Below, piece by piece: positions 10,237 to 50,898 of a stretch of DNA of 57,713 nucleotides. Both the position numbers and the translations under genes were made by a program. The notes under the pieces were generated by a model. It did not search any database. It was not told the DNA's origin and saw only the letters and a list, made by a program, of their open reading frames with translations. The number at the start of each line of letters is the position of its first letter. Position 1 is the first letter of the stretch. This DNA is from Bdellovibrionales bacterium RIFOXYD1_FULL_55_31 (GTDB taxonomy: Bacteria; Bdellovibrionota; UBA1018). The DNA lies in the NCBI GenBank assembly GCA_001770175.1, contig MEQK01000164.1:1-57713 (forward strand), given 5' to 3'.

Positions 10237-10238
10237 CC

Positions 10239-34436: not shown

Positions 34437-34454
34437 AGGCACCTCATAGTGAGC

Positions 34455-34531
34455 GCGGGCTTAGCTCAGTTGGCTAGAGCGCCACGTTGCCAACGTGGAG
34501 GTCGAGGGTTCGAACCCCTTAGCCCGCTCCA
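34455..34531 (+). tRNA. tRNA-Gly (GCC)
   Basis: Cloverleaf with acceptor GCGGGCT/AGCCCGC, anticodon arm CCACG-TTGCCAA-CGTGG, GTTCGAA T-loop and encoded CCA. Confidence 0.97.
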
Positions 34532-34622
34532 ATTTTCTGCCCCCTATCTCCTGTAAAAACATTGGTCAGTTTTGGACTTTGAACCTAAATCCGCAGATCT
34601 GGGCCCGTTCATGCCCCGGGTA

Positions 34623-34651
34623 TTTACAAGCACACTGTGTCTGATTATACT
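34623..34651 (+). promoter_or_regulatory. Putative sigma70 promoter
   Basis: TTTACA-N17-TATACT, then SD AAGGAGG before TTG 34702. Confidence 0.55.
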
Positions 34652-34701
34652 TAATACTTGACAGCCCTGGTCTACTTTTAGTTCCAAGGAGGCCGGTTAT
34701 T

Positions 34702-36345
34702 TTGTTAAAATTCACCCCGTTTTCCACTCATGTTCAGATCTCGGTCCTGATTGCCATCCTCGTCACTATGACAGGCTGCAGGCAAACGACAGGCCGCCCA
34801 TCCACACAGCCGTCGTACACTCCAGGCGGCAGCGTTGATCCGGGTTCGTCCTGGGTGCCCACAGGGCCCGCTTCTTATGTGAATGTGAACGGAAGCAATA
34901 CCTCCGGAGACGGTTCCCAGGAAAAGCCATGGGCTACGCTCTCGCATGCCTGCTCGCGCGTGACCTCGGCCGGAGAAGCGATCATCGTCGGCGCAGGGAC
35001 ATATCACGATTCCAATCAGTGCGTCCTTGCTCCAGGGGTCAGTATTAAAGGCGCCGGTCGCGCCCAAACCACGATCATCAGCAGCCTGAACGCACCCTAT
35101 GTTCAGGCAGTGTCGAATCCCGTGGTCGACGGCAATCAGTTCGTGAGTGATTTCAGGCTGGACGGCAACAATAAGGCTCTCTTGAACGGCATCAATGTCA
35201 CGGGGCGCAATCACTTCACGATCAAAAACATCGACTTCATCCGCATTAAATACAAAGCGATCAGTCTTCAAGGCACGGAGTGGTGGACCCATGCCGAACA
35301 GGACTACCCCGCTGTTCCCCCTCCGGCCTATGCCAGGGGAATTCTGGTCAAAGACGTCACGATCACCGGTTGCTCGAGCAATCAGTTCCAGGCAGCCGTT
35401 TGGGTGCAATCTCTCGAGGATGCGATTTTCGACAATATCGTGGTCGATGAATCAGCAGCCACGGGCGGACAAGGAAACCCGATGAAAAGCTGGCCGGGAT
35501 GGCTAAAACATTGCACGATCAAGAACTCCATCTTTACCGTGAATCAGAACAATTTGGGCGTCAATCCCGAACCGATCACGCTTGAACTCTGGAATATTGA
35601 ACAAGACACCGAAATCTATAACAACACATTCAATGACGGATACATTTCCCTCGTTTCCGGCCGAAAAAACGGCGGCACGAACGCACTCAGCTTTCATGAT
35701 AATCGTCTGAACAACTCGGCTCCTCTCGGTGTCGCTCATGAACTCGCGGTCAGCTACACCGATTTTTACAACAATTCCATTCACACCCAGTCTCTCGGAA
35801 TCTGGGCCGCCACCCACATGTACAATTTCGACGGGATAACGGATATCCGGGTCCACCATAACGTGATCCGAAGCACGAAGGGCAGCAACATCCAGATTCA
35901 GAACGGCCCGGGTGCCGTCGCGTTCAACAATATCTCGGTTTACAATAACGTTTTGGACTCGACCGATGGCACGTGGCCGAATGCGGGTGTGCTCGTTTCG
36001 CCGAACCTCAATACGAATTTCTCGAATATTTCGATTCAGAACAATATTTTCACGAACCTCGGTGTTGGTGTTTACTTTTACGGGGGAAACTCCTGGCGAG
36101 TGCAGCGACCGGTCGTCAAATACAATGACTTCTGGAATGTCAGTAAACAGGTTCAGAACGATGGCGTGACGAGTCCGACAATATCGAACAATTATTCCGT
36201 CGATCCCCTTTTCATGAAAACAGGCGCCCGGCCGAACCCCTACTATCTTCTGCAAACATCAAGTCCGCTGATCAATATGGGAGCCAACGTCGGCTTGCCG
36301 TATCTCGGGACAGCTCCCGATATCGGCGCCTACGAGATGAGATAA
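34702..36345 (+). CDS. Lipoprotein with right-handed parallel beta-helix domain
   Basis: Lipobox MTGC; GDGSQEKPWATL, GAGTY, Asn-ladder repeats (IYNN, HHNVI, IQNNIF), C-terminal PDIGAYE. Confidence 0.82.
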   Translation: MLKFTPFSTHVQISVLIAILVTMTGCRQTTGRPSTQPSYTPGGSVDPGSSWVPTGPASYVNVNGSNTSGDGSQEKPWATLSHACSRVTSAGEAIIVGAGTYHDSNQCVLAPGVSIKGAGRAQTTIISSLNAPYVQAVSNPVVDGNQFVSDFRLDGNNKALLNGINVTGRNHFTIKNIDFIRIKYKAISLQGTEWWTHAEQDYPAVPPPAYARGILVKDVTITGCSSNQFQAAVWVQSLEDAIFDNIVVDESAATGGQGNPMKSWPGWLKHCTIKNSIFTVNQNNLGVNPEPITLELWNIEQDTEIYNNTFNDGYISLVSGRKNGGTNALSFHDNRLNNSAPLGVAHELAVSYTDFYNNSIHTQSLGIWAATHMYNFDGITDIRVHHNVIRSTKGSNIQIQNGPGAVAFNNISVYNNVLDSTDGTWPNAGVLVSPNLNTNFSNISIQNNIFTNLGVGVYFYGGNSWRVQRPVVKYNDFWNVSKQVQNDGVTSPTISNNYSVDPLFMKTGARPNPYYLLQTSSPLINMGANVGLPYLGTAPDIGAYEMR

Positions 36346-36351
36346 GCTTTT

Positions 36352-37119
36352 CTATTTAAATCGCGATTCGGCGAAGGCGGCGGCGAAGTCGTCGGGCAGG
36401 TCGCCGTCATAGAGATTCGTCAGGATATTCTCGCGATCCGTCCGGGGGAGATCCACATCGCTCGCAATAAATTGCCCCCAGAAATTTCTGTAATACCCGA
36501 AAACCGATTCTTCGAACGTCTGCTCGTAAATCGCGGCGATATTCTGATTGCGCCTCAGGCGATCACGACCGGCGGGCGTTCTTGCCGCCATCATGCGCCG
36601 AAGGTTCACATAGTTTTGAACCGTAATCGTGATGAAAGCCGCGTAAGCTTCTTCATGAAAGCCAAATGGATGAGATGAGTAGAGTTGAACGGCACTTTTA
36701 TACCATTCCCGGTAAAAGCCCTCCTCAGTGCGTTTGGCGACGGTTGCAAAGTAACAGTGAAAAAGCTCGTGAGCGACCGTCGCGACCTCGTCGTCCGAGA
36801 GTTCAGCGAACTTTTTCATAGCTCCGGTTCGTCGGTCCTGCATTTCAAGGCCGAAGGTAATCCGGTTCGTAAGGCGGTTGTAGACGGCGATTGCATTCTC
36901 AGGAAGCGCGGCAAAACCGATTCCACTGAGATTTTGTAATGCTTGTTTCAAATACCGAACGGGGGCGCGAAGTTCGGTCATCCCCTGAACGAAGTCAGAG
37001 CTGACACTGGTCGAGTCAGCCCAGCTACTGGGAAGGGTCAAAGAAGCCACTCCTCCGGCCAGAATGATTGCCACAATTGCGCGGCCGAACTGACGAGCAG
37101 CTGATTGAGTCCGTCCCAT
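36352..37119 (-). CDS. Secreted HEXXH protein, putative gluzincin-like peptidase
   Basis: Signal peptide; VAHELFHC and HEEAYA. Start approximate. Confidence 0.6.
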   Translation of the reverse strand: MGRTQSAARQFGRAIVAIILAGGVASLTLPSSWADSTSVSSDFVQGMTELRAPVRYLKQALQNLSGIGFAALPENAIAVYNRLTNRITFGLEMQDRRTGAMKKFAELSDDEVATVAHELFHCYFATVAKRTEEGFYREWYKSAVQLYSSHPFGFHEEAYAAFITITVQNYVNLRRMMAARTPAGRDRLRRNQNIAAIYEQTFEESVFGYYRNFWGQFIASDVDLPRTDRENILTNLYDGDLPDDFAAAFAESRFK

Positions 37120-37266
37120 TCCTGGCCCCCTTTCGGTACCACTCATCCCATAAATGGCTATGCGTGTCAAAAACGAATAAAGATTGATCTGTTCGGGCCA
37201 TTTGTGCTTTCTTCTACAGGGGTTGCACGGCCGCAACGCCACACAGAGAATGCGAGTACATTTCTA

Positions 37267-40200
37267 ATGAGCCCTGTCACAACAAGCCGTTCAGAACTTC
37301 TGCGAAGGCATCTCAGTCAACGCATTCTCGTCCTTGATGGCGCGATGGGAACAGCGATCCAGAAATTCAACCTGACAGCCGAAGATTTCGGAGGTTCTGA
37401 TCACGAAGGATGCAATGAGAATCTCGTACTCACCCGGCCCGAGGTCATCCGCCGGATTCACGAGAGCTATCTCGAGGCAGGGTGCGACATTATCGAAACA
37501 AATACTTTTGGAGCCACCCCGCTCGTTCTCGATGACTACAACTTAGGGTCCCGGTCCCACGAGATCAACGTCACGGCCGCTAAACTGGCACGCGATGCCG
37601 CGGAAAAGTATTCGACTTCCGCCCATCCGCGTTTTGTCGCAGGCTCGATCGGGCCCACGACAAAAGCAATTTCCGTCACGGGTGGGATTTCTTTCGACGA
37701 ACTTCAGGAAAATTTTCACCAACAGGCGAGAGCTCTTGTCGACGGCGGTGTGGATTACCTGCTGCTGGAAACCTGCCAGGACACGAGAAATGTCAAAGCG
37801 GCCCTCCTCGCGATTGATCGCCTGTTCAGTGAAATGGGTCGGGAAATCCCGATCGCGGTTTCGGGAACGATCGAGGCCTCGGGAACGATGCTCGCGGGAC
37901 AATCCATTGAGGCTTTCCTTGCCTCCCTCTCTCATCTCGAGCTTCTCTATATCGGGATTAATTGCGCGACCGGCCCCGAACTGATGGCCGATCATATCCG
38001 CCCCTTGGCTCGACTTTCGAGATTGCCCGTCGCCTGCGTTCCAAACGCGGGATTGCCTGACGAGCATGGCGATTATCTCGAGACCCCCGAAATGGTCTCG
38101 AATGTCCTGAAACGCTTCCTGACGAACCGGTGGATCAATGTGCTCGGTGGTTGCTGCGGAACACAACCGAGCCACATCGAAGCCCTCACCCGTCTCGCGC
38201 GTGACCATGCGCCGCGAACCGAGTTCGCTACTCCCCGATCTTTTCTTTCGGGCGTCGACTATCTCGAAGTTACGGACGAGGTACGCCCGGTCATTGTCGG
38301 AGAACGGACAAACGTGATCGGGAGCAGGAAATTCAAGAACCTCATTTGCGAAGAAAAATTTGATGAAGCATCTGAGATTGCGCGAGTTCAGGTAAAGAAC
38401 GGCGCCCAGGTGATTGATGTTTGTCTTGCGAATCCCGATCGGGACGAGCTTAAGGATATGCGAACTTTCATGGAGCACGCTTCAAAAAAGGTTCGAGTTC
38501 CTTTTATGATTGATACGACCTCACCGGAGGTCCTGGCTGCGGCTCTGACCTATTGCCAGGGAAAAACCATCATCAACTCCGTCAACCTCGAGGACGGGGA
38601 GGCCCGCTTCCGTAAGATTGTTCCCCTCGCCCGCAGGTTCGGCGCCGCCCTTGTCGTCGGCACGATCGACGATCACCCAGCGCAAGGAATGGGCATTTCG
38701 CGGGAACGTAAGCTCGCGATCGCTGAACGGTCTTACGAGCTCCTGACCGGAACCTACGGAATGCCCCCCGAAGACCTCTACTTCGATCCTCTCGTCTTTC
38801 CGTGCGCAACCGGAGACTCTCAATATGTCGGTTCGGCAATCGAGACGATTGAAGGTGTTCGCCTGATCAAGTCCCGGTTCCCGAGATCAAAGACGATTCT
38901 CGGGATTTCAAACGTAAGCTTCGGCCTTCCTGCGGCCGGGCGCGAGATTCTGAATTCCGTTTTTCTCTATCATGCAGTTCGTGCGGGACTTGACTTGGCG
39001 ATCGTGAATTCGGAAAAGCTGGAACGTTATGCGATGATCCCCGAAAGGGACCGCGAACTCGCCGAAGATCTTCTGTACAACCGCGGAACAGACCCGGTTT
39101 CAGCTTTCGCCACGCACTTTCGTGACCGCAAACCGGCGGAACGCACGGAGAAGCAAAAACTTCCGCTGCTCGAACGACTCGCACGGTCGATCATTGAAGG
39201 TTCCAAGGAAGGACTGGAAGCGGACATCAAAGAAGCCGTTCAACAACTCCGCCCTCTCGAAATCATCAACGGCCCGCTCATGAAAGGCATGGACGAGGTC
39301 GGCCGCCTGTTTAAGGCGAACCAGCTCATCGTCGCCGAGGTTCTCCAATCCGCTGAAGCGATGAAAACGGCCGTTTCCCATCTCGAACCTTACATGCAGA
39401 AATCCGAGACGAGTTCGCGGGGAAAAGTCCTCCTCGCGACCGTCAAAGGCGACGTTCACGACATCGGAAAAAACCTGGTGGAAATTATCCTGGCCAATAA
39501 CGGCTTTGAAGTCGTGAACCTCGGGATCAAAGTCCCGACCGAGGATCTGATTCAGGCTGCACGTGAACACCAGCCCGACATCATCGGCCTGTCGGGGCTT
39601 CTCGTCAAATCAGCCCAGCAAATGGTAGCGACGGCCGAAGACTTCTCGAGGGCGGGCGTGACAACTCCGGTCCTCGTCGGCGGCGCCGCACTGTCCTCCA
39701 GTTTCGTCGATAAGCACATTGCCAAAGCCTACGGCCAAGGAACGGTCGCTTATGCGTCCGATGCCATGGCCGGTTTGGAACTCGCCAAAAGGATCGTCAA
39801 CCCTCAACACTTTGAAAAGCTCAAGACGGAACTCGCTTCACGGCGAGAACACTCCACGAGTATCCCGAGTCAGGACCGCCCGGACAGCGCGAAAGCATCC
39901 CCGGAAGTCCGATCGGCCAAAATCGAACTTCTTCGTGAGTTACCCTCCCCTCCCGACTTTAGGCGCCACGTACTTCGAAACACCCCGCTCGAACAAATCT
40001 GGCGATTCGTCAATCCGCTCATGCTTTACGGACGTCATCTCGGAATCAAAGGCAGCACGGTGCGCCTGCTCGAAGCCGCTCATCTGCCCGAAGTAGCCTC
40101 CTCCGATCCAAAGGCTCTCTCCATCTGGAACACCGTCGAAGAAGTCAAAGCCGAGTACTCCGAAGGCAGCGGCGAAATTTTTCAGCCTTCGGCGATCTTT

Positions 40201-40794
40201 CAATTCTTCCGGGCTTCGAACAGTTCAAACCAGCTTCGGTTATATTCCGACGATCGGCTCCGAGCCGCCTTCGACTTCCCTCGTCAGGCGATGCCGGACG
40301 GCCTTTGCCTGGCCGATTACGTCGCCCCGGAACCAGCGCCACACGGCGAAAGGGATTCCGTCGCGCTCTTCATTGTCAGCGTCGGGAAAGGGATACGCCA
40401 GGTTTCCGAATCACTCAAAATGCGGGGGGATTATCTGAAGTCGCACATCATCCAAGCGCTGGCCCTTGAGTCGGCCGAAGCTTACGCCGAGTTGCTTCAC
40501 AGTCAAATTCGCAAGATGTGGGGATTCCCTGACCCGCCGGAACTCACGATGCTCGAACGCTTTCAGGCGCGCTATCGCGGAAAACGCTACTCGTTCGGAT
40601 ACCCCGCCTGTCCCCGCCTGGACGACCAGAAGATCCTGTTCGAGGTTCTTAACCCCTCCGAAATCGGGATCGAACTCACCGAAACCATGATGATGGACCC
40701 GGAGGCAAGCGTCTCCGCGATTGCCTTTCATCATCCCGCCGCGACGTATTTTTCCGTAGGTCATAAGGGAGGCGTTGACGATGATAACCGTTAA
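37267..40794 (+). CDS. metH: Cobalamin-dependent methionine synthase
   Basis: LDGAMGT, ETNTF, NCATG, GGCCGT, GERTN, DVHDIGKN (B12 His), RYSFGYPACP. Confidence 0.96.
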   Translation: MSPVTTSRSELLRRHLSQRILVLDGAMGTAIQKFNLTAEDFGGSDHEGCNENLVLTRPEVIRRIHESYLEAGCDIIETNTFGATPLVLDDYNLGSRSHEINVTAAKLARDAAEKYSTSAHPRFVAGSIGPTTKAISVTGGISFDELQENFHQQARALVDGGVDYLLLETCQDTRNVKAALLAIDRLFSEMGREIPIAVSGTIEASGTMLAGQSIEAFLASLSHLELLYIGINCATGPELMADHIRPLARLSRLPVACVPNAGLPDEHGDYLETPEMVSNVLKRFLTNRWINVLGGCCGTQPSHIEALTRLARDHAPRTEFATPRSFLSGVDYLEVTDEVRPVIVGERTNVIGSRKFKNLICEEKFDEASEIARVQVKNGAQVIDVCLANPDRDELKDMRTFMEHASKKVRVPFMIDTTSPEVLAAALTYCQGKTIINSVNLEDGEARFRKIVPLARRFGAALVVGTIDDHPAQGMGISRERKLAIAERSYELLTGTYGMPPEDLYFDPLVFPCATGDSQYVGSAIETIEGVRLIKSRFPRSKTILGISNVSFGLPAAGREILNSVFLYHAVRAGLDLAIVNSEKLERYAMIPERDRELAEDLLYNRGTDPVSAFATHFRDRKPAERTEKQKLPLLERLARSIIEGSKEGLEADIKEAVQQLRPLEIINGPLMKGMDEVGRLFKANQLIVAEVLQSAEAMKTAVSHLEPYMQKSETSSRGKVLLATVKGDVHDIGKNLVEIILANNGFEVVNLGIKVPTEDLIQAAREHQPDIIGLSGLLVKSAQQMVATAEDFSRAGVTTPVLVGGAALSSSFVDKHIAKAYGQGTVAYASDAMAGLELAKRIVNPQHFEKLKTELASRREHSTSIPSQDRPDSAKASPEVRSAKIELLRELPSPPDFRRHVLRNTPLEQIWRFVNPLMLYGRHLGIKGSTVRLLEAAHLPEVASSDPKALSIWNTVEEVKAEYSEGSGEIFQPSAIFQFFRASNSSNQLRLYSDDRLRAAFDFPRQAMPDGLCLADYVAPEPAPHGERDSVALFIVSVGKGIRQVSESLKMRGDYLKSHIIQALALESAEAYAELLHSQIRKMWGFPDPPELTMLERFQARYRGKRYSFGYPACPRLDDQKILFEVLNPSEIGIELTETMMMDPEASVSAIAFHHPAATYFSVGHKGGVDDDNR

Positions 40795-41851
40795 TCCCGT
40801 GCATGCGACAACCGGTATCGGGAGTCTTCCGCACCACAATATTGATTCAGCCCTCGATTTTTCGTTCAGGGCGGGGATTCCATTTCTTCCTCAGATTCCG
40901 ATCCGCAACCCATGGGAGTTCATGATCGCACAAGCGCTCGAGGGACTGCCGGGGTTGGAGGTCGAGAAAGACGGCGCCGTGTTTCTGAAGCTGGACGTAT
41001 GGAAGAGCCGCTCACAGGAACTCGATCGCAAACTCAATGAGGCTTTCTCGCGCAGCACACAGGAAAAGGAAGCCTTCATCGGTTTCGAACCGTCGCCCGC
41101 CATTTCGAGCAGCTGGCAACCCTTCCTGTGGGAACTCGAGGAACGCGGCACCTCGCTCGCCAAGATCCAGATTGCGGGACCGATGACCGCGCAATGGGCG
41201 CTGAGGGCAAAAGGTGGAGCCTCCCTCGACCAGTACCCCGAAGTCACGTCTCAGATCTTTCGGGTCATCATGGCCCGAGCCGTGGCGATGACCCGCCGTT
41301 TGAAGACGGCCGGAATTCAGCCCCTCATTTTTTTGGACGAACCGGGGCTCTACGGCTTGTCGCTCACGAATACCCGCCACCTGATGGGACTTCAGGAATT
41401 GAAGCTTTTGGTGCAAACCCTTTCGAAAGAGGGCGCTACCATCGGCCTGCATTGCTGCAGTAATACAATCTGGAGCAAGATTCTCGAACTCGGCCTGGAT
41501 TATCTCTCGATTGACGCTGATCTCTCGCTTACCGGTCTGATCGGTGATGAGCGCGGCGCGCGAGTCGCGGAATTCGTGAAGCACGGGGGGCGCCTTTCAC
41601 TGGGGATCATAAGAACGGGCTCGGCCGACCGTTCAGTCATGCTGCGAACGCTTCGTCCCGCGGTGCTTTTCGGAAATCTCATGGAGACCCTCGGCCGGGT
41701 TTGGAAAGAAGAAGCCGAACTCGTGAAAAAAGTTTTGAGCGAAGCGCTCTACACTCCCGCCTGCGGTTTGGCGCTCCACTCGACCGAAGAGGCGGAATGG
41801 ATTCTCGAAACCTTGAACGCCTTCCACAAGGATTGTATTTCGAAACTATGA
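40781..41851 (+). CDS. Single-barrel MetE-like protein (MesB/core-MetE type, URO-D/CIMS fold)
   Basis: TGIGSLPH, PFLPQIP, KIQIAGP, FLDEP, LHCC, LSID, TPACGL; no N-terminal folate-binding barrel. Confidence 0.75.
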   Translation: MITVNPVHATTGIGSLPHHNIDSALDFSFRAGIPFLPQIPIRNPWEFMIAQALEGLPGLEVEKDGAVFLKLDVWKSRSQELDRKLNEAFSRSTQEKEAFIGFEPSPAISSSWQPFLWELEERGTSLAKIQIAGPMTAQWALRAKGGASLDQYPEVTSQIFRVIMARAVAMTRRLKTAGIQPLIFLDEPGLYGLSLTNTRHLMGLQELKLLVQTLSKEGATIGLHCCSNTIWSKILELGLDYLSIDADLSLTGLIGDERGARVAEFVKHGGRLSLGIIRTGSADRSVMLRTLRPAVLFGNLMETLGRVWKEEAELVKKVLSEALYTPACGLALHSTEEAEWILETLNAFHKDCISKL

Positions 41852-43356
41852 CCTTCGCCCTCTTTCGCGAAATGCATTCGTTGACGCCACTCTCCGATTC
41901 GGTTCCCCTCGCGTCACTTGACGTTTCGCTTCTCATTCCTGCCCGTAATTCGGGTCATGCTCTCGAGAAAACCGTTCAAGAGGCCCATCGTTTTCTCAGC
42001 GTGCGTTATCCCGGCGCATTCGAGATCATTCTGATTCCGAATCCGGCGCTGAACCCGCCGCCGGGCGCGCCCAAGGATGAATCCACCGAGATTTCCGAAT
42101 CACTTTCGGCGCGCTTCGCGCACGTCAAGACGGTTCGACATTACTCGCCGAGCGGAAAGGGCGCGGCATTACGCACCGGCTTTCTCGCATCTCGCGGCCA
42201 GTGGATCCTATTCACCGATGCGGATCTCCCCTATGACCTGGAGTTTTTCGACAGGGCCATGGAAAAATTGCGGAACGGCTATCATTTCGTAACGGGCAAC
42301 CGGAGATTGGGTTCCAGTCATTTTAATGTGCCCGTCGATCTCCTTCGCCTCGCCTACGGACGGCATCGCTTGGGGCTTGCTTTCAATCAAGTCGTGCGCT
42401 GGCTTTTTCCGATCAAGGCGATCGACACTCAGGCGGGCATCAAGGCGATGTCGCGGGATCTCGCTGCAAAGGTATTTTCGTTGCAGCGTTGCCCGGGTTT
42501 CTTTTTCGATCTCGAGTTTTTCCTGACGGCGCGATGTCAGGGATTCAGGCACGTCGACCTTCCCGTCACACTTTATCTGAACAGCGAGAAGAGTACGGTT
42601 CGGGTCTTTCGCGAATCGATCCTCGCCGGCTTTTGGCTCGCAAGGATCTGGTGGCTGCATCGGCTTGGCTCCTACGGCCGGGCGCCGCGCAGACGCGGAG
42701 TGCTGGCCCGGTACCGCAATGCATCCTTCTCCACTCGCCTCTTCCTGAAAGCTCGTTGGCACCTCACGCCCTATCTCGATATGGCCGAGCATTTGCCTGT
42801 GTCAGGACCGGTGCTCGACCTGGGCTGCGGGCATGGTCTTCTTGCCATCGCAATCGCGCTCGATGCGCCTGACCGTGCCGTTTACGGGATCGACCATGAT
42901 GTCGCCCGCGTGGAACTCGCCAAGAACGCCGCCTCCGATTTGCCTAATATCCGCTTCAACGTCGGGACGATGGACCAGATCCCGGCGGCTGGCCCTTATT
43001 CGGGCATCGCGATGATCGATGTTTATCACTACTTCAAGCCCGAGACTCAGGAGGAACTTGCCCGGAGGGCATTCGCGCAACTCCAGCCCGGCGGGACGCT
43101 TCTGGTTCGGGAAGTCGAACCGCAAGGCGGGTTCGCCTCCTCCTGGAACCAGTGGTACGAAAAGCTCGCGACCGCGAGCGGATTCACTCAGGCCGATAAA
43201 GCCCAACTTCATTTCCGCACGACTCGCGATTGGGAGGACCTTTTCAAAAAAGCCGGATTCACGGTGAAATCACGACGCTGTGGCAGTCGGCTATTTTCAG
43301 ATGTTCTCTTCATATGCGATCGTCCTCGAATCGAGGGCATCGAGGCGTCACCATGA
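41848..43356 (+). CDS. GT2 (polyprenol-phosphate glycosyltransferase-like) fused to class I SAM methyltransferase
   Basis: SLLIPARN, GKGAALRTG, FTDAD, DTQAGIK, FFFDLE; then VLDLGCGHG, GIDHD, LQPGGTL. Confidence 0.85.
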   Translation: MTFALFREMHSLTPLSDSVPLASLDVSLLIPARNSGHALEKTVQEAHRFLSVRYPGAFEIILIPNPALNPPPGAPKDESTEISESLSARFAHVKTVRHYSPSGKGAALRTGFLASRGQWILFTDADLPYDLEFFDRAMEKLRNGYHFVTGNRRLGSSHFNVPVDLLRLAYGRHRLGLAFNQVVRWLFPIKAIDTQAGIKAMSRDLAAKVFSLQRCPGFFFDLEFFLTARCQGFRHVDLPVTLYLNSEKSTVRVFRESILAGFWLARIWWLHRLGSYGRAPRRRGVLARYRNASFSTRLFLKARWHLTPYLDMAEHLPVSGPVLDLGCGHGLLAIAIALDAPDRAVYGIDHDVARVELAKNAASDLPNIRFNVGTMDQIPAAGPYSGIAMIDVYHYFKPETQEELARRAFAQLQPGGTLLVREVEPQGGFASSWNQWYEKLATASGFTQADKAQLHFRTTRDWEDLFKKAGFTVKSRRCGSRLFSDVLFICDRPRIEGIEASP

Positions 43357-46229
43357 GAAGAACGATTCTGATCATGACCGCCCTGCTCGTTTTTGCCGTT
43401 CTCCCGATCTACACGGTTAAAGTAATACAAAAAACAGATTACACCGACTTCTCCGTCTACTATCGGGCAGCCAAGCGAATGCAAGCCGGCAACTGGAATG
43501 AAATTTACAGCCTGTCTGACGGGGCCTCTCCCCTACGGTACGCCCCTATCACCTTGCCGCTCATGCGGCCCCTCGCGGAGGTTCCTGAAACCCCCGCCCG
43601 GGTCCTTTGGTTTTACCTGCAGTACTGCTTCTTCGGCCTGGGGTTTTTCTTCCTTTTTCGGGCGCTCAAATTGGTCCGCCCGAGACGCCGCGCCAGCCAA
43701 ATACCAGAACGCGCGTCCTCCGGGCTGGTCGCGACTTGCTTCGGCATCCTTTTCATTCTGAGATTCTGCCTCGATACGTTCACGATCGGCCAGGTTTCGA
43801 GCCTGATGTTCGTCGGCTTCACCCTGTCTCTCTACGCCTGGATGCGGGGAAAAGCGTCTCTCGCGGGAATAGGTGCTTTTATCCCGACCGTCTTCAAGGT
43901 CGGTCCTGGGGTTTTGTACGGCGTATTCGCCTCATCGCGACCGAAGGCTTTTCGTCGAGCCCTGTCCGGCAGTGCACTCCTGTTTCTCATCCTGAATGTC
44001 CTGACGCTCGCCTGGCTCGGTTCGGGCCCCCGGTTCAAAACACTCTGGAGCGACTGGGTGCGGATCGTCCTTGAAGACGGCAATTATTACGATGCCTCCC
44101 ATTATGGAAGCCAATCCGTCAAAAGCGCGCTCCTCAGACTCGCCCGCCAAGGTTGGTTCAGCTCACAGTCGGTAACGGAGTTTTGGCTCCTCGCCGCGGC
44201 CGTGGGCTGTGCCGCGGTTGCGGCGTTCTGGATTTTGAGACGTCCGAGGTCCATCCGATCCCGCGGCCTTTTCTTTTCTTTGGGCATTTTCCTTTACCTT
44301 TGGTTCATGCCCGAAACCTTCAAATACGCGCTGACAACGCTTGCGATTCCGGCGACTCTTGTTTTCCTGACCCTACTCGACGGATCACGGATCAAGAGCA
44401 GGCTGCTTCACTCCGTGGTGCTCGGCTTCGGATTTCTCACGCTGTCGATTCCAGGTAAGGATATCGTCGGCGATCGAATCTTTTTCGCTCTTCAGTACGC
44501 TTCCATTCCACTCATGGCGACGCTGCTGCTCGGCACGTCGTGTTTGCTCCTCGCCTGGCAGGATTCGGCCCCTTCACGAGCGGCGCGCTGGTTCAAAGCA
44601 CTTCTTTCGCCACGGGTTCTTGGGCCTTGGGGCGCGGATGGGGGCGGGTTTTCGGAACGGACAGAGAAATCGCCCTGTAAAGTATCTCTGCTGCTGCCGA
44701 TTCCGTTCGGGCCGTACGGTTCATGCGATCTCGATGTTCAACGGGTCGAACGCATTATTGCTGACGCCACGCACTTCCTGGCGGCGGAATGGCCCGCTCG
44801 CTTTGAAATCATCGTGATCCCGTTCGGTGATCGCGTCAGCGAGTTCCAACCCGTTATCGCGCACGTTCGAAGTCTCGCGAAAAATCAATTTCGAATCAGA
44901 ATGACCGATTCCTTCAGCGGTTACGGCCGTGCAGCCGCGCTTCGCGAAGGTTTTCTCGCGTCTCATGGAGAGATCATTCTGGTCAGCCATTTCGAACAAC
45001 CCTGTGAGCTCTCTTTTTTCAAAAGAGCTGTTGCGGCAATCGAAACCGGCGCGACTGATCTGGTTCGGGCGAATCGCCGTCATCCCGAAACCCGGTTTAA
45101 AGTCCCGGTCTCGGTTCTTTCACTCGTTTACCGGCGGCATCGGCTTGGCTTGCGGTTCAATCGCCTGATTCGCGCGATTCTCCCGGTCCAAACGACTGAC
45201 ACCCATTCCGGCACGTTCGCGATGACGCGGAAGATGGCGTTGGAAGCTTTTTCACTGCAAAGTTCCGCCGACTTTCTTTTCGACCTGGAAATCAGTCTTG
45301 TCGCGCGAACGCAGGGTTTCAGGGAAGCTGAATTCCCGGTGGTTCTCTATCTCGCGCAGGAAAAGACGTTCAAGAGGATGGTCCATGAGACGATGAGCAT
45401 CCTGATCGGTTTGCCCGTCCTCGCTTGGCGCTATCACCGCGGCTATTATCGGCATTTCTCCTGGAAACCGGGTACCCTCGAGATCACGGCCGACGACTGG
45501 GGACTGTCGCCCTCCGTCAACAGCGGAATCCTCGAACTCGCCCGAATGGGACTGATACGAAAAATTTCGCTGCTCGCGGACAGCCGGTTTTTAACGCATG
45601 GATTAAACGAACTGAAGGAATTACGGAACCGCGGGACAGTCCGACTCGGACTTCACTTCAATCTCACCTACGGGAAAAACGGTGCCCGTCCAGCTGGCGT
45701 TCTTCTCCGCTGGATTCTCCCATTCCAGAACCGCAGCGCGCTTCAAGACTCCGTCCGGCGGGAATTCGCGCTTCAACTTCGAAAACTCGAGACCGAAGGG
45801 GTCCGGCCCGTCTACCTCGATGGACATCACCACATTCACCTCACCCCGGGTATTCTCGAGTCTTTAACGGATCTGCTGGCCACGAGCGACATTCGCGAAA
45901 TCCGGCTGCCCTATGACCCGCGACTCTGGTTAACCGGCAAATGGCCACTCAACCTTCTCTCCTTGAGATTGAAAACGGTTCTTTCCAGAAAAGGCTTTTC
46001 ATCGCGTCCCTTCTACTATCCCTCAACGTCAGACTTCATGGACCAAGGATTCCTCCGAACGAAGCTCTCCAAAACCGTTGCCGGAACTGAAGTCATTATC
46101 CACCCGGCAAACTCCAATGACGCAAGTGTTTGGGAATTCCCCGATTCATACGTCGAGGGGCGCGTTACCGAGTATCGCGCCTTGAAAATGCTCCTCGCCT
46201 CTGGCCAAGAGCAAAGTCGCGGGATATAA
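43353..46229 (+). CDS. Triple fusion: GT87/DUF2029 GT-C, degenerate GT2, and YdjC/ChbG/HpnK deacetylase
   Basis: TDFSVYY, YAP, GQVS, FKVGP in a membrane domain. A GT2 copy with SHFEQ at the DxD site. ITADDWG, GLHFNLT, DGHHHIH, EVIIHP. Confidence 0.8.
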   Translation: MRRTILIMTALLVFAVLPIYTVKVIQKTDYTDFSVYYRAAKRMQAGNWNEIYSLSDGASPLRYAPITLPLMRPLAEVPETPARVLWFYLQYCFFGLGFFFLFRALKLVRPRRRASQIPERASSGLVATCFGILFILRFCLDTFTIGQVSSLMFVGFTLSLYAWMRGKASLAGIGAFIPTVFKVGPGVLYGVFASSRPKAFRRALSGSALLFLILNVLTLAWLGSGPRFKTLWSDWVRIVLEDGNYYDASHYGSQSVKSALLRLARQGWFSSQSVTEFWLLAAAVGCAAVAAFWILRRPRSIRSRGLFFSLGIFLYLWFMPETFKYALTTLAIPATLVFLTLLDGSRIKSRLLHSVVLGFGFLTLSIPGKDIVGDRIFFALQYASIPLMATLLLGTSCLLLAWQDSAPSRAARWFKALLSPRVLGPWGADGGGFSERTEKSPCKVSLLLPIPFGPYGSCDLDVQRVERIIADATHFLAAEWPARFEIIVIPFGDRVSEFQPVIAHVRSLAKNQFRIRMTDSFSGYGRAAALREGFLASHGEIILVSHFEQPCELSFFKRAVAAIETGATDLVRANRRHPETRFKVPVSVLSLVYRRHRLGLRFNRLIRAILPVQTTDTHSGTFAMTRKMALEAFSLQSSADFLFDLEISLVARTQGFREAEFPVVLYLAQEKTFKRMVHETMSILIGLPVLAWRYHRGYYRHFSWKPGTLEITADDWGLSPSVNSGILELARMGLIRKISLLADSRFLTHGLNELKELRNRGTVRLGLHFNLTYGKNGARPAGVLLRWILPFQNRSALQDSVRREFALQLRKLETEGVRPVYLDGHHHIHLTPGILESLTDLLATSDIREIRLPYDPRLWLTGKWPLNLLSLRLKTVLSRKGFSSRPFYYPSTSDFMDQGFLRTKLSKTVAGTEVIIHPANSNDASVWEFPDSYVEGRVTEYRALKMLLASGQEQSRGI

Positions 46230-46238
46230 CAAAAGTCA

Positions 46239-47561
46239 ATGAAGAGCTTATCGCGAAACTGGAAAATATTCCTGATCCTTGCGTTCGTCGCCGGCGCGAT
46301 TCTCCGCCTCATCTATGTCAACGACATGGAGTACAAAGAGGACGAGGAATTTAACTTTACCCAAACCCAGATCGTTCGTGGATTCACCGATTGGCCCTGG
46401 GTCGGCATGCCTTCTGGGGTTTATCTTCAAAACCCCGGAATGAGCATTTGGGTCTTCATCGCGCTTGCAAAAATATTCCGGGTGACGCAACCGACCGAAC
46501 TCGCCCACGCAGTCCAGCTCTTCAGTCTGCTCGGAATCGCGATGATCATCCCGTTCGTTCTTTGGTTCGTCAGGACCGAGGAGCGCGAACCCTGGCTTTG
46601 GGCGTTCGTTTTCTCGCTGGTGAACCCCTTTGCCATCCTGTACCAACGCAAACTTTGGCCGGAGCCGTTCCTCCCGTTTTTCACGATGTTGGTCCTCATG
46701 GGGTGGTGGCGACGCGATCGGAAACCGGGAGCCTTCGTGTGGGGATTCATCGGCGCATGGCTCGGGCAGATCCACATGAGCGGTTTTTTCTTCGCGGCGG
46801 GTCTGTTCCTTTGGACGCTGTTCTTTGACCGTTCGACCGGCCCCCCCGAGTCCAGCCGACGTCCGCGCTGGAAATTCTGGTTCATTGGCTCCTGTCTGGG
46901 CGCGCTTCCGCTCATTCCCTGGTTCCTTGAAGTCCTCGCGCACCCGCCGAGGGGCCACATGGTATCGGGCATCAGTGAAGCGCTTCAGCTCAAATACTGG
47001 GTCTTCTGGATTACTGACGCACTGGGGCTTCACTTGGGCAATCCTCTCGGTTTATTGCGCGGGCAATCGAACTTTGCGCAGATTTCAGATTTTATCCGCT
47101 ATCCCCTGATCAACGGCCAGGCAACTTATCTCGTCGGGCTTGCTCATATCGCGATCGTGATCGGCGCGCTCATCATCGTCTATCGCGCGGTTCGGGGAGT
47201 TCCCATAACGTTCGCCGCCGCGGGTTCAGTCAAAAGTCTCTTTATCGGGCAAGGCTCACCGACTGCTTTTGTGCAAAGCGCGGCTCTTTGGGGCACCGGG
47301 ATACTATTGACCATCACTGGCGTGGCGATCCGCCGATATTACATGATGGTCACTTTCCCGCTGGAATTCGTCTGGCTGGCGCGAATAACGCTCGGCCATG
47401 GCCAGGCATTTTCGCGTTTTCCGCGCGCGGTTCTTGGAATAATCTGGACAGCCCAACTCTTTATTTCGGCCAATTTCGTCGGGTACATCCACGTCAATGA
47501 AGGAGCTGTCCAAGGGGACTACGGTCCCGCTTACCATGTCATCATGAAGCAGCGAAAGTGA
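46239..47561 (+). CDS. GT-C fold membrane glycosyltransferase (ArnT/PMT-like)
   Basis: Polytopic; LRL..EYKEDE acidic loop after TM1, NPG, VNPFAILYQRKLW, QIHMSG. Confidence 0.7.
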   Translation: MKSLSRNWKIFLILAFVAGAILRLIYVNDMEYKEDEEFNFTQTQIVRGFTDWPWVGMPSGVYLQNPGMSIWVFIALAKIFRVTQPTELAHAVQLFSLLGIAMIIPFVLWFVRTEEREPWLWAFVFSLVNPFAILYQRKLWPEPFLPFFTMLVLMGWWRRDRKPGAFVWGFIGAWLGQIHMSGFFFAAGLFLWTLFFDRSTGPPESSRRPRWKFWFIGSCLGALPLIPWFLEVLAHPPRGHMVSGISEALQLKYWVFWITDALGLHLGNPLGLLRGQSNFAQISDFIRYPLINGQATYLVGLAHIAIVIGALIIVYRAVRGVPITFAAAGSVKSLFIGQGSPTAFVQSAALWGTGILLTITGVAIRRYYMMVTFPLEFVWLARITLGHGQAFSRFPRAVLGIIWTAQLFISANFVGYIHVNEGAVQGDYGPAYHVIMKQRK

Positions 47562-47567
47562 GACTCT

Positions 47568-48863
47568 ATGCAAAAGCGTCCTGATCCCGGTTTCTTCGCC
47601 GAACTCGAAGCACGCGAAATCGTCAAGCAGGTGACCGATCCTGAACTCGCCCACGCGCTCAAGAAAGAGCCGATGACCCTCTATATCGGATTCGACCCGA
47701 CGGCCGATAGTCTTCATGTCGGCGGATTGCTGCCGCTCGTGACACTCAGAAGATTTCAGCTTGCGGGGCACCGGCCCATTGCCGTGATCGGAGGCGCGAC
47801 GGGAATGATCGGAGACCCGAGCGGGAAAACCCAGGAACGCTCGTTGCTCGATGACGAAAAGATCGCCCACAATCTCAAAGGCATCACGAAGAATATCGCA
47901 AAAGTGCTTGATCTCAGCCCGGCCTCCGACGCCAAGGTTCTGAACAACGCGGATTGGACTAGATCAGTGTCCTATATCGAGTTCCTGCGGGACATCGGAA
48001 AGCATTTTACGGTCAACCACATGACCGCCAAGGAATCCGTTCGCGCTCGACTGGAAGACCGTGAGCACGGCATCTCGTACACGGAATTTTCGTACATGCT
48101 CCTTCAGGCTTACGACTTCCTGGTCCTCAAAGAGCGCGAGAACTGTCTGCTTCAGGTCGGGGGCTCAGATCAATGGGGGAACATCACCGCCGGCATCGAC
48201 CTGATCCGAAAGGTTCACGGCACGAACGCGGGCGTTTACGGCATGACTCACCCGCTCGTGATGAAAGCGGACGGAACCAAATTCGGCAAATCCGAGCAAG
48301 GCGCCATCTGGCTCGACCCGGACAGAACGTCACCTTACCAGTTCTACCAATATTTCATCCAGACCACGGACGCGGATGTCATCCGACTCCTGCGCTATTA
48401 TACGTTCCTCCCCTTGGAAGAAATCGCCGCACTCGAAAACTCGCTCAAAACCGAACCTGAGAAGCGAGCTTCCCAGCTCACCCTCGCGCGCGAACTGACA
48501 CGAATGGTTCACGGCGATTCGGAACTCTCCCAAGTTGAACGAACAAGCCATGCACTCTTCGGTTCGGCAATCAAGGAACTCGACGAACGGTCGCTCCTCG
48601 ACGTCATGAGCGGCGCTCCCACGACACAGAAGTCAAAAGACCTCCTATCGCAAGGTATCGCGCTCGTCGATCTTGTCTCCGAAACCGGCCTTTGTTCTTC
48701 GAAAGGCGCGGCCCGAAAGGACATCACGGCCGGCGGCATTTACGTCAATAACGATCGGGTGAATGACGCTTCTCATGTGCTGAAAACGGCCGATCTGATT
48801 TCCGGCGGCTACATCGTCCTTCGTAAAGGAAAACGCACGTACCATCTGGTCGCGTTCAGGTGA
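47568..48863 (+). CDS. tyrS: Tyrosine-tRNA ligase
   Basis: YIGFDPTADSLHVGG, GDPSGK, QAYDF, QVGGSDQWGN, KFGKS, C-terminal S4 domain. Confidence 0.97.
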   Translation: MQKRPDPGFFAELEAREIVKQVTDPELAHALKKEPMTLYIGFDPTADSLHVGGLLPLVTLRRFQLAGHRPIAVIGGATGMIGDPSGKTQERSLLDDEKIAHNLKGITKNIAKVLDLSPASDAKVLNNADWTRSVSYIEFLRDIGKHFTVNHMTAKESVRARLEDREHGISYTEFSYMLLQAYDFLVLKERENCLLQVGGSDQWGNITAGIDLIRKVHGTNAGVYGMTHPLVMKADGTKFGKSEQGAIWLDPDRTSPYQFYQYFIQTTDADVIRLLRYYTFLPLEEIAALENSLKTEPEKRASQLTLARELTRMVHGDSELSQVERTSHALFGSAIKELDERSLLDVMSGAPTTQKSKDLLSQGIALVDLVSETGLCSSKGAARKDITAGGIYVNNDRVNDASHVLKTADLISGGYIVLRKGKRTYHLVAFR

Positions 48864-49848
48864 CTTTGCACCAGCGGTTCATGAGCTTTTGAGGAATTTT
48901 GTCGTGGTAGAGATTCGCGAGCGCCGCCGCTGTCGCGACCGGGTTTTCGATTTGCGGGCTATGGCCTACCCCTTTGAGCACGACGGCACGCACTTCGCGC
49001 CCGGAACTCTCCATCCCCGCCTTCAACCGGCTGGTCCAATGCTCGGCCATGACTGGGGGGATCAGGGTGTCTTTTTCGCCCCAAAGCAGCCAGACTCGTG
49101 AACGGATCTTTTCAACGGAATCCGCGAGAAAATGTTCATCCCTTACTGATCCCATGAATTGGTGCACTTCGGTCTTCCCGAGAAAGCTGTCGACTTCCTT
49201 CGCGAAAAACCTGAACCAGACGGGTTCTTTCCCGAATATGAACGGCCGCCAGGCCACGAGCCCATTTTCAGCAATGCGCTGAAAAACGCTCTCGAATTCC
49301 TTGCGTCGATCCGGGCTTTCGAAAAGGCCGGGCGGATCGACGAGGATGATCAGCTCAGGCCCTTGATAGTTCACGGTCCGCCCGGCTGGCCTCGTGCCCG
49401 CTCCGCAAGCCACGGCATAAAGACTCGTGAGCCAACCGCCGAGCGAATGCCCAAGAACCGTATCGGGCTTAAGCGTATCGAAAACATCACTGACGGCGTC
49501 GACGAGAAGATCCATGGAATCGAAGGCACGCTCCCGCGAAAGAAAACCGCCAAAACCCGGAAAATCCAGGAGCACCACTTCGTCGTACCGCGCGCGCAAC
49601 ACCGGGCGCAAAAGCGCGAGAATGACGAACCAGGAAAGAGAGGTGTCGCCGAACCCTGGAACGAGAACGAAGCGTTTCACATGCGGTTTCTTTTTCAGGT
49701 CGCGCCCGAAGCTTTTTCTCCAAAGTCCGATCTTGAGTTCGCCTTTACGCCGAAGCTCCCAAGTGTAACCTGTCCGCTCGAGTACCTGGCGGGCGGTCCA
49801 ATGAACGGCTCGCAACCACGGGACGCGATACTCACGAGAGACTGTCAT
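48856..49848 (-). CDS. Alpha/beta hydrolase
   Basis: VPGFGD, DFPGFG, GHSLGG nucleophile, WGEKD, GHSPQIE. Confidence 0.88.
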   Translation of the reverse strand: MTVSREYRVPWLRAVHWTARQVLERTGYTWELRRKGELKIGLWRKSFGRDLKKKPHVKRFVLVPGFGDTSLSWFVILALLRPVLRARYDEVVLLDFPGFGGFLSRERAFDSMDLLVDAVSDVFDTLKPDTVLGHSLGGWLTSLYAVACGAGTRPAGRTVNYQGPELIILVDPPGLFESPDRRKEFESVFQRIAENGLVAWRPFIFGKEPVWFRFFAKEVDSFLGKTEVHQFMGSVRDEHFLADSVEKIRSRVWLLWGEKDTLIPPVMAEHWTSRLKAGMESSGREVRAVVLKGVGHSPQIENPVATAAALANLYHDKIPQKLMNRWCKVT

Positions 49849-49928
49849 GGTTCGGTTTTACTGAAAATCCGACCAAATGCCCAGCCTCATGCTTTACTTT
49901 GACCTGATTATCGGGAAAATGGGTCTCT

Positions 49929-50867
49929 ATGACCGCGCTCCCGTTCAAAGCTGACCGAAAACTGACCGATGTGCTCTCCGAAACGAAGTTCACGGTTTCC
50001 GCCGAGGTTATCCCGCCCCGTAACGGTTCCGAACAAGGTAAAGTCCTCGCTCAAATCGACTCCTTGCGCGGCGCCGGCGCACAGTTCCTGGCCGTGACAA
50101 AGGGCGCCGGAGGAAGCCTCCGGGGAGGAAGCCTTCCGATCGCGCAGGCCATAAAAGAAAATTTCAACATCCCCTGCATCGCCCATTTCACCTGTCGGGA
50201 CCTCACCGCCTTCGATGTCGAGAATCAGCTGATTGACCATCATTACTTCGGCATACGCAACATCCTGGCTCTTCGCGGAGATCCACCGGACGGCCAACCC
50301 GAATGGCGGCCACGCGAAGGCGGCTATAGCTATGCGCATGAGCTGATTCGGCAAATCACCGCCCTGAACCGGGGTGAATACATCCCGAGACCGGGCGGCC
50401 CGGAGCGGGATGGGACGGCAACAACCGATTTCTGCATCGGCGCCGCCGTTTACCCGGAATTTCCTGACAAGATGAAGCGTCTCCAATACTTCCGGCAAAA
50501 AGTTGAAGCAGGCGCGCAGTACGGCATCACGGATATGCTGTTTGATCCAGAGGTCTATGCCCGCTTCCTGGATGATTGCGGTAAAGCCGGGATAACGATC
50601 CCGATCCTGCCTGGGACGAGGATTTTGAAATCGCGAACGCAAGCTCACAAGATGATGGCAAAGTTCCGCGTGAATCTCCCGTCCGAAGTCCTGAATATGC
50701 TTCCCGAAACAGCGACGGGACCGGAGGCCATTCCCCTGGCGACCGAACTATTTATGCGACTCGTCGAACGTCTTCGTTCCCTTGGCGCTCCCGGCATTCA
50801 TGTGTTCGTCATTTCGGACACCGATGCTGCCGTTACGGCGATCATGCGCTGCGCACTGAATCGGTAA
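49929..50867 (+). CDS. metF: 5,10-methylenetetrahydrofolate reductase
   Basis: EVIPPR, VTKGAGGS, AHFTC, NILALRGDPP, AVYPE, KVEAGA. Confidence 0.92.
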   Translation: MTALPFKADRKLTDVLSETKFTVSAEVIPPRNGSEQGKVLAQIDSLRGAGAQFLAVTKGAGGSLRGGSLPIAQAIKENFNIPCIAHFTCRDLTAFDVENQLIDHHYFGIRNILALRGDPPDGQPEWRPREGGYSYAHELIRQITALNRGEYIPRPGGPERDGTATTDFCIGAAVYPEFPDKMKRLQYFRQKVEAGAQYGITDMLFDPEVYARFLDDCGKAGITIPILPGTRILKSRTQAHKMMAKFRVNLPSEVLNMLPETATGPEAIPLATELFMRLVERLRSLGAPGIHVFVISDTDAAVTAIMRCALNR

Positions 50868-50898
50868 AGGTATCCACAAAAAATACCGATGAATCAGT

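Follow-up and report, generated by a model that had tools for sequence, protein, structure and literature searches.

In Bordetella, glucosamine is put on lipid A by LgmA, LgmB and LgmC, a combination of a family GT2 glycosyltransferase, a YdjC-like deacetylase and a GT-C glycosyltransferase, and in Francisella the YdjC-family deacetylase NaxD acts on a lipid-linked N-acetylhexosamine (HexNAc). The ArnC/ArnD/ArnT pathway relies on a GT2 enzyme loading undecaprenyl phosphate, a cytoplasmic deacylation, flipping and a GT-C transfer. According to passages of one report, Francisella combines two GT2 enzymes resembling dolichol-phosphate-mannose synthase (DPMS) with one GT-C enzyme to put mannose and galactosamine on lipid A (PMC2233673). 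Here we compare with these systems a gene cluster on contig MEQK01000164.1 of Bdellovibrionales bacterium RIFOXYD1_FULL_55_31, analysed over positions 1 to 57,713 (the window, the whole stretch of 57,713 nucleotides (nt)). The cluster comprises the cobalamin-dependent methionine synthase gene metH, a gene that we call g2, a GT2 domain (GT2a) fused to an S-adenosylmethionine (SAM)-dependent methyltransferase (GT2a-MTase), a GT87-GT2b-YdjC triple fusion, the membrane protein gene g5 and tyrS (Table 1). We lean towards reading it as two units that merely lie side by side, the second being a self-contained module for a lipid-linked amino sugar whose link to methionine synthesis would be one of location, and we hold this reading to be somewhat probable.

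The module is a highly fused, methyltransferase-bearing variant of known envelope amino-sugar systems, and departs from the Francisella and Bordetella precedents by its covalent fusions, its second GT-C, its degenerate GT2b and its methyltransferase. With Francisella FlmF1/FlmF2, NaxD and FlmK it shares two GT2 domains, a YdjC deacetylase, GT-C proteins for a presumed transfer and a host that makes lipid A, as follows from the presence of lpxC in the genome. It differs by two GT-C proteins (GT87 and the uncurated g5) in place of one ArnT-like enzyme, by a deacetylase fused to a GT-C and a degenerate GT2, and by a SAM methyltransferase fused to the catalytic GT2. The Bordetella Lgm enzymes are separate proteins with an ArnT-type GT-C and no methyltransferase, whereas the module here is fused, and lipid A is only a possible acceptor for it. 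Relatives of the Arn enzymes can likewise be recognized, ArnC close to GT2a (3.3e-7) and ArnT close to g5 (Z 18.6), but ArnC has transmembrane helices and GT2a has none, and the Arn enzymes are neither fused nor associated with methylation. To our knowledge, ArnD is not a YdjC protein.

The earlier note on this DNA, made from the sequence alone, had proposed the identities of most of these proteins, and scans with the Pfam and NCBIfam models bore out those of metH, GT2, the methyltransferase, GT87, YdjC, tyrS and metF. GT2a-MTase joins a GT2 domain (PF00535, amino acids (aa) 27-162, 1.9e-13) to a class I methyltransferase (aa 311-474, 5.9e-16), and its D124-x-D126, D193-T-Q and SAM motif D324-x-G326-C-G-H-G330 are invariant. 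Compared with the PDB, the GT2a ortholog profile matched DPMS (9e-9), heparosan synthase (1.7e-7), GtrB (2.9e-7) and ArnC (3.3e-7), while a hydropathy scan of GT2a-MTase found no true transmembrane helix.

In the triple fusion, the GT87 domain (PF09594) covers aa 63-314 with an E-value of 1.1e-14 and 55.3 bits against a gathering score of 25, which confirms the proposed second GT-C beside g5; in precomputed annotation, nearly all of 98 fusion homologues also match GT87 above the Pfam score. An aspartate of the first extracytoplasmic loop, D32, is invariant. Both the Pfam match and this loop aspartate recall the mycobacterial GT87 enzyme PimE; PimE, however, is not part of a fusion and mannosylates phosphatidylinositol mannosides, whereas GT87 here forms the N-terminal third of a 958-aa fusion. 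At the C-terminal end, YdjC (PF04794, aa 709-944, 4.3e-33) gave a profile match to PDB 7vi8 (1.3e-17), and D714, D715, H768 and H825-H829, which we take to be the metal and catalytic ligands, are invariant in 11 orthologs.

Between them, GT2b matches PF00535 below the Pfam cut-off (E-value 0.018, 15.4 bits), is 38% identical to GT2a (3.5e-44) and has a profile match to GtrB (3e-3). Two GT2 types can be told apart by their motifs. Type a, found at the N-terminus of the GT2-methyltransferase and in its orthologs, YdjC-fused ones included, carries PA(R/K)N, GKGAAL, TD(A/S)DLPYD and DTQAGIKA. In type b, the middle domain of the triple fusion, DxD has given way to H/D-x-E-Q-P or DAANP, and DTQAG to DTHSG; in the protein studied here H-F-E stands where DxD would be. 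Because both motifs are replaced, GT2b may be non-catalytic or use a different donor; judging from these motifs, its role may be to load another sugar or simply to keep hold of the lipid-linked substrate.

The g5 protein matched no Pfam or NCBIfam model, and no PMT_2, PMT or other Pfam match appeared even at an E-value of 10. Sequence searches of PDB chains returned nothing meaningful for g2 or g5, and both were therefore assigned through predicted folds. The AlphaFold (AF2) model of g5, built from 12 orthologs (pLDDT 73.6, pTM 0.82), aligned with VIA-align to ALG12 (Z 19.6), Pmt4 (Z 19.0) and ArnT (5f15, Z 18.6, 351 aa aligned), which are tied. The 50 structural matches listed comprise 46 GT-C glycosyltransferases and 4 glycosylphosphatidylinositol transamidase complexes, PimE ranking 44th among them (Z 11.9). 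Structural neighbours in the Atlas are PMT_2/GT39-like (TM 0.72-0.74), and the acidic first loop (D29, E31, E34, D35, E36) is invariant. By its predicted fold, g5 is a GT-C glycosyltransferase. No similarity was found with hhalign between the g5 profile and unannotated 421-aa and 509-aa neighbours of modules in other families.

The module is present in 20 of the 24 other genomes of the window's family. Among 5.8 billion proteins, 98 (526-1677 aa) match the triple fusion, and all the taxon names given to them are Bdellovibrionota or older or member names (Oligoflexia, Bdellovibrio, Bdellovibrionales, Deltaproteobacteria); databases name the fusion merely 'ChbG/HpnK family deacetylase'. In a sample of 151 genomes of the phylum, the triple fusion and the full module were found only in the window's family (f1), and GT2-YdjC modules occur in five other families. 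We found no open-access paper on a GT87-GT2-YdjC or GT2-methyltransferase-YdjC fusion.

Relatives combine the same parts differently (G, L, P and C numbers designate our genomes, loci, proteins and contigs). In another family, GT2a, the methyltransferase and YdjC form one 730-aa protein, confirmed with Pfam (L128:9589-11781, G143), and G002 encodes a GT2a-YdjC fusion with canonical motifs and an adjoining GT87 (L023:8638-10176). Four database proteins of 647-813 aa join GT87 to YdjC without a full GT2b (P0208, P0212, P0220, P0221), and a 1437-aa protein unites GT87, GT2b, YdjC and g5 (P0146), its g5 part being 53% identical to ours (5e-147). On the Rosetta-stone principle, these GT2-MTase-YdjC, GT2-YdjC, GT87-YdjC and GT87-GT2-YdjC-g5 fusions indicate that the parts of the module belong to one pathway. 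The proposal that the cluster follows the GT2, YdjC and GT-C logic of known systems thus gains support from independent domain fusions. So does, as far as sequence can tell, the proposal that it makes and transfers a methylated, deacetylated sugar, since fusions join GT2a, the methyltransferase, YdjC and both GT-C proteins. As a separate observation, downstream of metH-g2 in G011 comes a GT87-like stretch interrupted by two stops (C20:13378-14283, minus strand), likely a pseudogene, and an intact module lies on another contig of that genome.

Domain identities, folds, conserved catalytic residues, fusions and synteny being observed, a sequence of steps can be proposed in which we infer the substrates, order, topology and acceptor. 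One unit would be metH and g2, a methionine-synthesis pair conserved across Bdellovibrionota, and the other GT2a-MTase, GT87-GT2b-YdjC and g5, a pathway for a lipid-linked amino sugar. GT2a would put HexNAc from a nucleotide sugar on polyprenyl phosphate at the cytoplasmic face, YdjC would remove the acetyl group, and the fused SAM methyltransferase would add a methyl group to the sugar, in the simplest case on the amine thus exposed. Some flippase would then carry the product to the periplasmic side, where the GT87 domain and g5 would pass the sugar to one or two envelope acceptors. By precedent the acceptor would be lipid A or lipopolysaccharide, and proteins or other glycans are possible. 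In one family this second unit sits between g2 and tyrS of a presumably older metH-g2-tyrS-hydrolase-metF string, with which it is probably co-transcribed here.

As it stands, a single membrane protein of 958 aa brings together domains for making, deacetylating and transferring the donor sugar, and is encoded next to a GT2-methyltransferase and a second GT-C. Should the chemistry prove true, it would offer a compact model for the handing of a lipid-linked sugar to GT-C transferases, GT2b being a candidate non-catalytic domain that holds the lipid-sugar, and would suggest that the envelopes of some poorly studied relatives of predatory bacteria bear a methylated amino sugar not described so far.

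The GT-C and GT2 matches also fit a polyprenyl-phosphate-mannose system, in which the GT2 makes the donor, GT87 and g5 transfer mannose to lipid A, which carries mannose in B. bacteriovorus, or to a different acceptor, and YdjC and the methyltransferase act elsewhere. Characterised members of GT87, the Pfam family matched above its cut-off here, are mannosyltransferases; the nearest solved relative of GT2a is DPMS; and in a locus of another family (L126) the module has a ManC gene, for GDP-mannose synthesis, some 400 nt away. Francisella, too, employs a second GT2 for mannose, as passages of PMC2233673 describe. Nevertheless, GT2a is fused to YdjC in two lineages, in one of them together with the methyltransferase, which points to an N-acetylated sugar product, mannose having no acetyl group to remove. 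The fusion of GT87 to YdjC similarly suggests, from domain architecture, an amino sugar donor rather than mannose. The two chemistries could conceivably coexist if GT2b loaded mannose, yet GT2b has no DxD. Because the full module is restricted to family f1 in the 151-genome sample, it is not a general system of Bdellovibrio lipid A mannosylation; for the enzymes of the latter, we found no open-access paper. All in all, we consider a mannose pathway unlikely, although it may hold for part of the system.

A further possibility is that GT2 and YdjC produce a free cationic glycolipid on a membrane lipid, in the manner of HpnI/HpnK with hopanoids or GpgS/GpgD with phosphatidylglycerol, without feeding a GT-C. 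YdjC weakly matches HpnK (2.8e-11), GT2a weakly matches HpnB (1.2e-4) and is devoid of transmembrane helices, and operons combining a synthase, a deacetylase and a flippase are on record in the portions of PMC12713373 consulted. The same portions place GpgS and GpgD in other enzyme families, GT4 and COG3233 (PMC12713373). Moreover, YdjC is covalently joined to a GT-C both in the window and in the four proteins of the GT87-YdjC type, and a single record links it to g5 as well. A glycolipid of this kind appears very improbable. Its hopanoid version, with HpnI and HpnK proper, was rejected: YdjC reaches 43.2 bits with TIGR03473, for which the cut-off is 232.6, and the genome, at 89% completeness, yielded no hopene cyclase.

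The position of the module next to methionine genes calls for another explanation to be weighed against side-by-side units, namely a functional coupling of the module with metH, g2 and metF, the supply of methyl groups (methionine, then SAM) being co-regulated with the synthesis of the methylated sugar. This was the central claim of the earlier note. The order of the 11.6-kb six-gene string and its junctions (14-nt, ATGA, ATGA, 9 and 6 nt) were confirmed, start codons having been picked from overlaps and ortholog alignments, and AAGGGAGG lies 9-16 nt 5' of the g2 ATG. With junctions that overlap or span 6-9 nt, one transcript is likely, and the whole string is probably transcribed as such in this genome. 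A minus-strand alpha/beta hydrolase gene closes the plus-strand unit, and metF does lie one gene beyond tyrS, behind this hydrolase. The closeness of metF and the presence of a SAM-dependent methyltransferase within the module would equally suit a coupling.

Conservation of the arrangement was assessed in 37 loci anchored on the triple fusion, 5 of which could not be assessed for upstream metH or g2. One or the other gene immediately precedes the module in 23 of the remaining 32 loci, all from one Bdellovibrionota lineage and spanning many genera at 40-70% protein identity, so that within the family the genes are not unlinked in relatives. In detail, metH-g2 precedes the module in 21 of the 37 loci, g2 at a contig edge in 1 and metH without g2 in 1, while neither gene is found there in 8 loci and probably one more. 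The module also occurs apart from methionine genes: G006 has the module and a full MetE with neither metH nor g2, and G007 carries module and metH on different contigs. In these genomes and in L054, where metH is non-adjacent or was not found, the methyltransferase of the module is retained, which speaks against a coupling.

Conversely, metH-g2 is also found on its own. In a second set of 57 loci anchored on g2 (L069-L122 included), the following genes belong to the module in 27, consist of g5 alone in 2 and include no module gene in 24, the last 4 being not assessable; metH-g2 thus stands without a downstream module in 24 of 53 assessable loci. The gene next to g2 was on the opposite strand in 8 of 14 loci examined. 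The string metH-g2-tyrS-hydrolase-metF occurs in L105 and L098 and parts of it in L108 and L112, and other intermediates are metH-g2-g5-tyrS in L090 and metH-g2-GT87-g5 in L075. From these intermediate arrangements it would seem that the housekeeping neighbourhood is the older one and that the module fills a variable place in it, between g2 and tyrS. Outside the family, metH was found near none of the GT2 or GT2-YdjC modules, the GT2-MTase-YdjC fusion included (0/8 loci, within 8-20 kb).

As an internal control of linkage we used tyrS, which is functionally unrelated to the pathway; of 25 assessable loci, 13 have it immediately downstream of the module, a comparable linkage. Meth_synt_2 (PF01717) was not found at an E-value of 0.001 or below in 40 of the 41 genomes searched, and metH, as the sole methionine synthase found in most of them, is therefore a housekeeping gene. 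A single methyltransferase, besides, would need no dedicated methionine synthase. With Rfam models, neither a SAM nor a cobalamin riboswitch was found in the window or upstream of metH in 7 relatives, nor did any riboswitch or other regulatory element shared by the met genes and the module come to light. Scans of positions 34000-52000 gave 8 promoter-like sites where 7.3 were expected and 17 terminator-like sites where 22.6 were expected, none at a junction, and are uninformative. The SAM synthetase gene metK was not found in the genome at its 89% completeness, which says nothing on a linkage of SAM synthetase.

With units separable both ways, tyrS about equally linked and no shared regulatory element, the co-regulated methyl supply was not borne out, and we judge a functional coupling to be quite unlikely. 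The pair metH-g2 and the module look like two separable units side by side with a positional methionine link, and only co-location connects methionine synthesis with the module, in one family.

Several observations weigh against our reading of a self-contained amino-sugar pathway that is merely a neighbour of methionine genes. Which sugar is made, where it is methylated and what accepts it are inferred throughout. GT2a lacks a transmembrane helix and counts heparosan synthase (1.7e-7), a polysaccharide synthase, among its nearest solved relatives next to DPMS, GtrB and ArnC; its presumed loading of polyprenyl phosphate is suggested by the GT-C partners. The four-part 1437-aa fusion is a single metagenomic record and a possible sequencing or gene-calling artefact. 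No flippase is encoded in the cluster, none of whose proteins matches GtrA (PF04138), as had been proposed; the sole PF04138 match of the genome lies on another contig beside a CDP-alcohol phosphatidyltransferase and an aminotransferase, with no adjoining glycosyltransferases. The linked genomes all belong to one lineage and their counts are not independent. Finally, the adjacency of metH and module (23/32) is somewhat better kept than that of tyrS (13/25), and given the overlapping or very short junctions there may be a regulatory link within the family.

The first unit deserves attention in its own right. MetH is complete, with 1174.9 bits to TIGR02082 (equivalog cut-off 1010.85) and all five Pfam domains, and its zinc cysteines C233, C296 and C297 and its D729-x-H731 motif are invariant across 18 orthologs. 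By contrast, g2 matched no Pfam or NCBIfam model. An AlphaFold (AF2) model built from 23 homologues (pLDDT 90.3) superimposed with VIA-align on the catalytic domain of MetE (3l7r, residues 405-743) with Z 22.6 and a root-mean-square deviation of 3.3 Å over 284 aa; lower-ranked folds were MesD (3rpd, Z 22.3), MtaA (19.5) and uroporphyrinogen decarboxylase (19.4). Invariant in 23 sequences are S15, D186-E187-P188, H224, C226, D245 and C328, and Meth_synt_2 is reached by 2 of the 23 family members (best 4.6e-7). When g2 was aligned with hhalign to the bona fide MetE of a relative, DEPG, HCC and SID fell on DEPA, HMC and SIE, at a probability of merely 2.6%. Parts of Price et al. 2021 assign these positions to the homocysteine-binding Ser and Asp and to the zinc ligands, and record that characterised MesB has Asp replacing Glu (PMC7857596). 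From its predicted structure, g2 is probably a MetE-like zinc barrel that lacks the folate domain and binds homocysteine.

The core methionine synthases MesA-MesD (portions of PMC7857596; core-MetE, PMC7005905) accordingly provide the nearest comparison, as MetE-type catalytic barrels without a folate domain. The likeness to MesB extends to His-x-Cys...Asp...Cys, with Asp for Glu, and to the conserved Ser and Asp of the homocysteine positions. 'MesB-like', the name first proposed for g2, is hence a fair description of its kind, namely a MetE-like zinc barrel of the core type that bears this signature; an operational threshold for MesB is given as at least 173 bits to DET0516 in the parts of Price et al. 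at hand (PMC7857596). Unlike core methionine synthases, g2 matches no curated model and follows a complete MetH. Nor was a convincing corrinoid iron-sulfur protein (CoFeSP, AcsC/AcsD) seen in its 89%-complete genome, where PF03599 was matched only partially (113/387 positions, 47.7 bits) by a CdhD-like 385-aa protein on another contig.

In the g2-anchored set, 2 loci are contig edges, leaving 55 assessable for metH, and in all 55, from several Bdellovibrionota families and irrespective of the module, metH stands directly upstream of g2. The converse does not hold, G007 and G016 having metH without g2. One locus, in a record labelled candidate division WWE3, has a weaker second g2-like stretch upstream of metH (L085:1761-2390, 28% identity) in addition to a normal g2 downstream. 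A complex prediction for the MetH B12 domain (aa 712-885) with g2 scored 0.00; run without controls, it carries no weight either way.

Beyond the phylum, g2 defines a large family of MetE-like zinc enzymes outside Pfam and NCBIfam. Among 1.84 billion representatives, its profile retrieved 1786 clusters (50% identity) at an E-value of 0.001 or below, 249 of them at 1e-30 or below. Ten distant members yielded one weak Meth_synt_2 match and otherwise no Pfam match, and distant members keep the Ser, Asp-Glu-Pro, His-x-Cys, Asp and Cys positions. NF002119, the archaeal 'methionine synthase' model, was grazed by 4 of 6 members tested (7.5e-9 to 1e-5), far from its cut-off. With a 6-sequence alignment of g2 relatives, at least 597 loci were found in many, mostly anaerobe-rich phyla, at 24-30% identity to g2, including Planctomycetota (anammox genera among them), Omnitrophota, Aminicenantes, Chloroflexota (with Dehalococcoidales), Clostridia, Thermodesulfobacteriota and others. 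Of these at least 597 loci, the best 80 (L135-L214) were inspected for neighbours: none has a full metH beside the g2-like gene, 7 have a stand-alone corrinoid (cobalamin-binding) protein within about 1.5 kb upstream and 3 a metF-like gene nearby. Such a pattern would be expected for corrinoid-dependent core methionine synthases. What sets the Bdellovibrionota branch apart is its tie to a complete MetH, whose homocysteine domain has intact zinc cysteines. So strict a pairing raises a testable question, namely why a core-type synthase is kept beside MetH.

One answer would join both units. The g2 of Bdellovibrionota could take methyl groups from MetH-bound cobalamin, either as a second acceptor module acting in trans or as a core methionine synthase of a fifth kind, and in one family this methyl hub could have been transcriptionally joined to a fused envelope pathway for an N-methylated hexosamine. 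If so, the coupling of methionine genes and module proposed by the earlier note would be real in that family. We think this combined view distinctly improbable, and retain the reading of two neighbouring units.

Table 1. Coordinates of the features discussed, in positions of the window; indented names are parts of the preceding gene product.
Feature	Position (nt)	Strand	Description	Junction or neighbour
Moco riboswitch	10097-10250	+	Molybdenum/tungsten cofactor riboswitch, 49.1 bits	
lnt	32074-33804	+	Apolipoprotein N-acyltransferase	3.4 kb upstream of metH
tRNA gene	34455-34528	+		
Open reading frame, 547 aa	34702-36345	+	No Pfam match	
Open reading frame, 296 aa	36352-37242	-	No Pfam match	
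metH	37267-40794	+	Complete cobalamin-dependent methionine synthase; homocysteine, pterin, cap, B12 and activation domains	
g2 (356 aa)	40781-41851	+	Predicted MetE-like single-barrel zinc enzyme	14-nt overlap with metH
GT2a-MTase	41848-43356	+	GT2 and class I SAM methyltransferase	ATGA overlap with g2
 GT2	41926-42597	+	About aa 27-250	
 Methyltransferase	42778-43269	+	aa 311-474	
GT87(GT-C)-GT2b-YdjC fusion (958 aa)	43353-46229	+	Triple fusion	ATGA overlap with GT2a-MTase
 GT87	43539-44294	+	GT-C domain	
 GT2b	44742-45467	+	Divergent GT2	
 YdjC	45477-46184	+	Deacetylase	
g5 (440 aa)	46239-47561	+	Second membrane glycosyltransferase of predicted GT-C fold	9-nt gap after the fusion
tyrS	47568-48863	+	Tyrosine-tRNA ligase; TIGR00234, 399.8 bits	6-nt gap after g5; last co-directional gene
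Alpha/beta hydrolase	48856-49848	-	Pfam Abhydrolase_6, 3.8e-24	Convergent; overlaps tyrS end by 8 nt
metF	49929-50867	+	Methylenetetrahydrofolate reductase; Pfam MTHFR, 3.3e-57; TIGR00676, 204.9 bits, below cut-off 293.7	
287-aa protein	50899-51762	+	Prepilin-type N-terminal methylation motif	Directly after metF
1113-aa protein	51840-55181	+	Malectin, F5/8 type C (discoidin), beta-helix and polysaccharide lyase domains	
tRNA gene	56911-56996	-		

Around the cluster, lnt stays upstream of the module in genomes that have no metH there (L013/L052, L054). Of the two open reading frames between lnt and metH, the start of the 296-aa one is doubtful, since it would leave just 24 nt before the start of metH. 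Downstream, the protein encoded directly after metF carries a prepilin-type motif, and the 1113-aa protein, to judge from its domains, is probably a secreted or surface enzyme that binds and degrades glycans. The window also holds two tRNA genes and a Moco riboswitch scoring above the gathering threshold; another Moco riboswitch is found in a related genome (L022:1647-1878, minus strand), about 0.7 kb upstream of metH and on the opposite strand.

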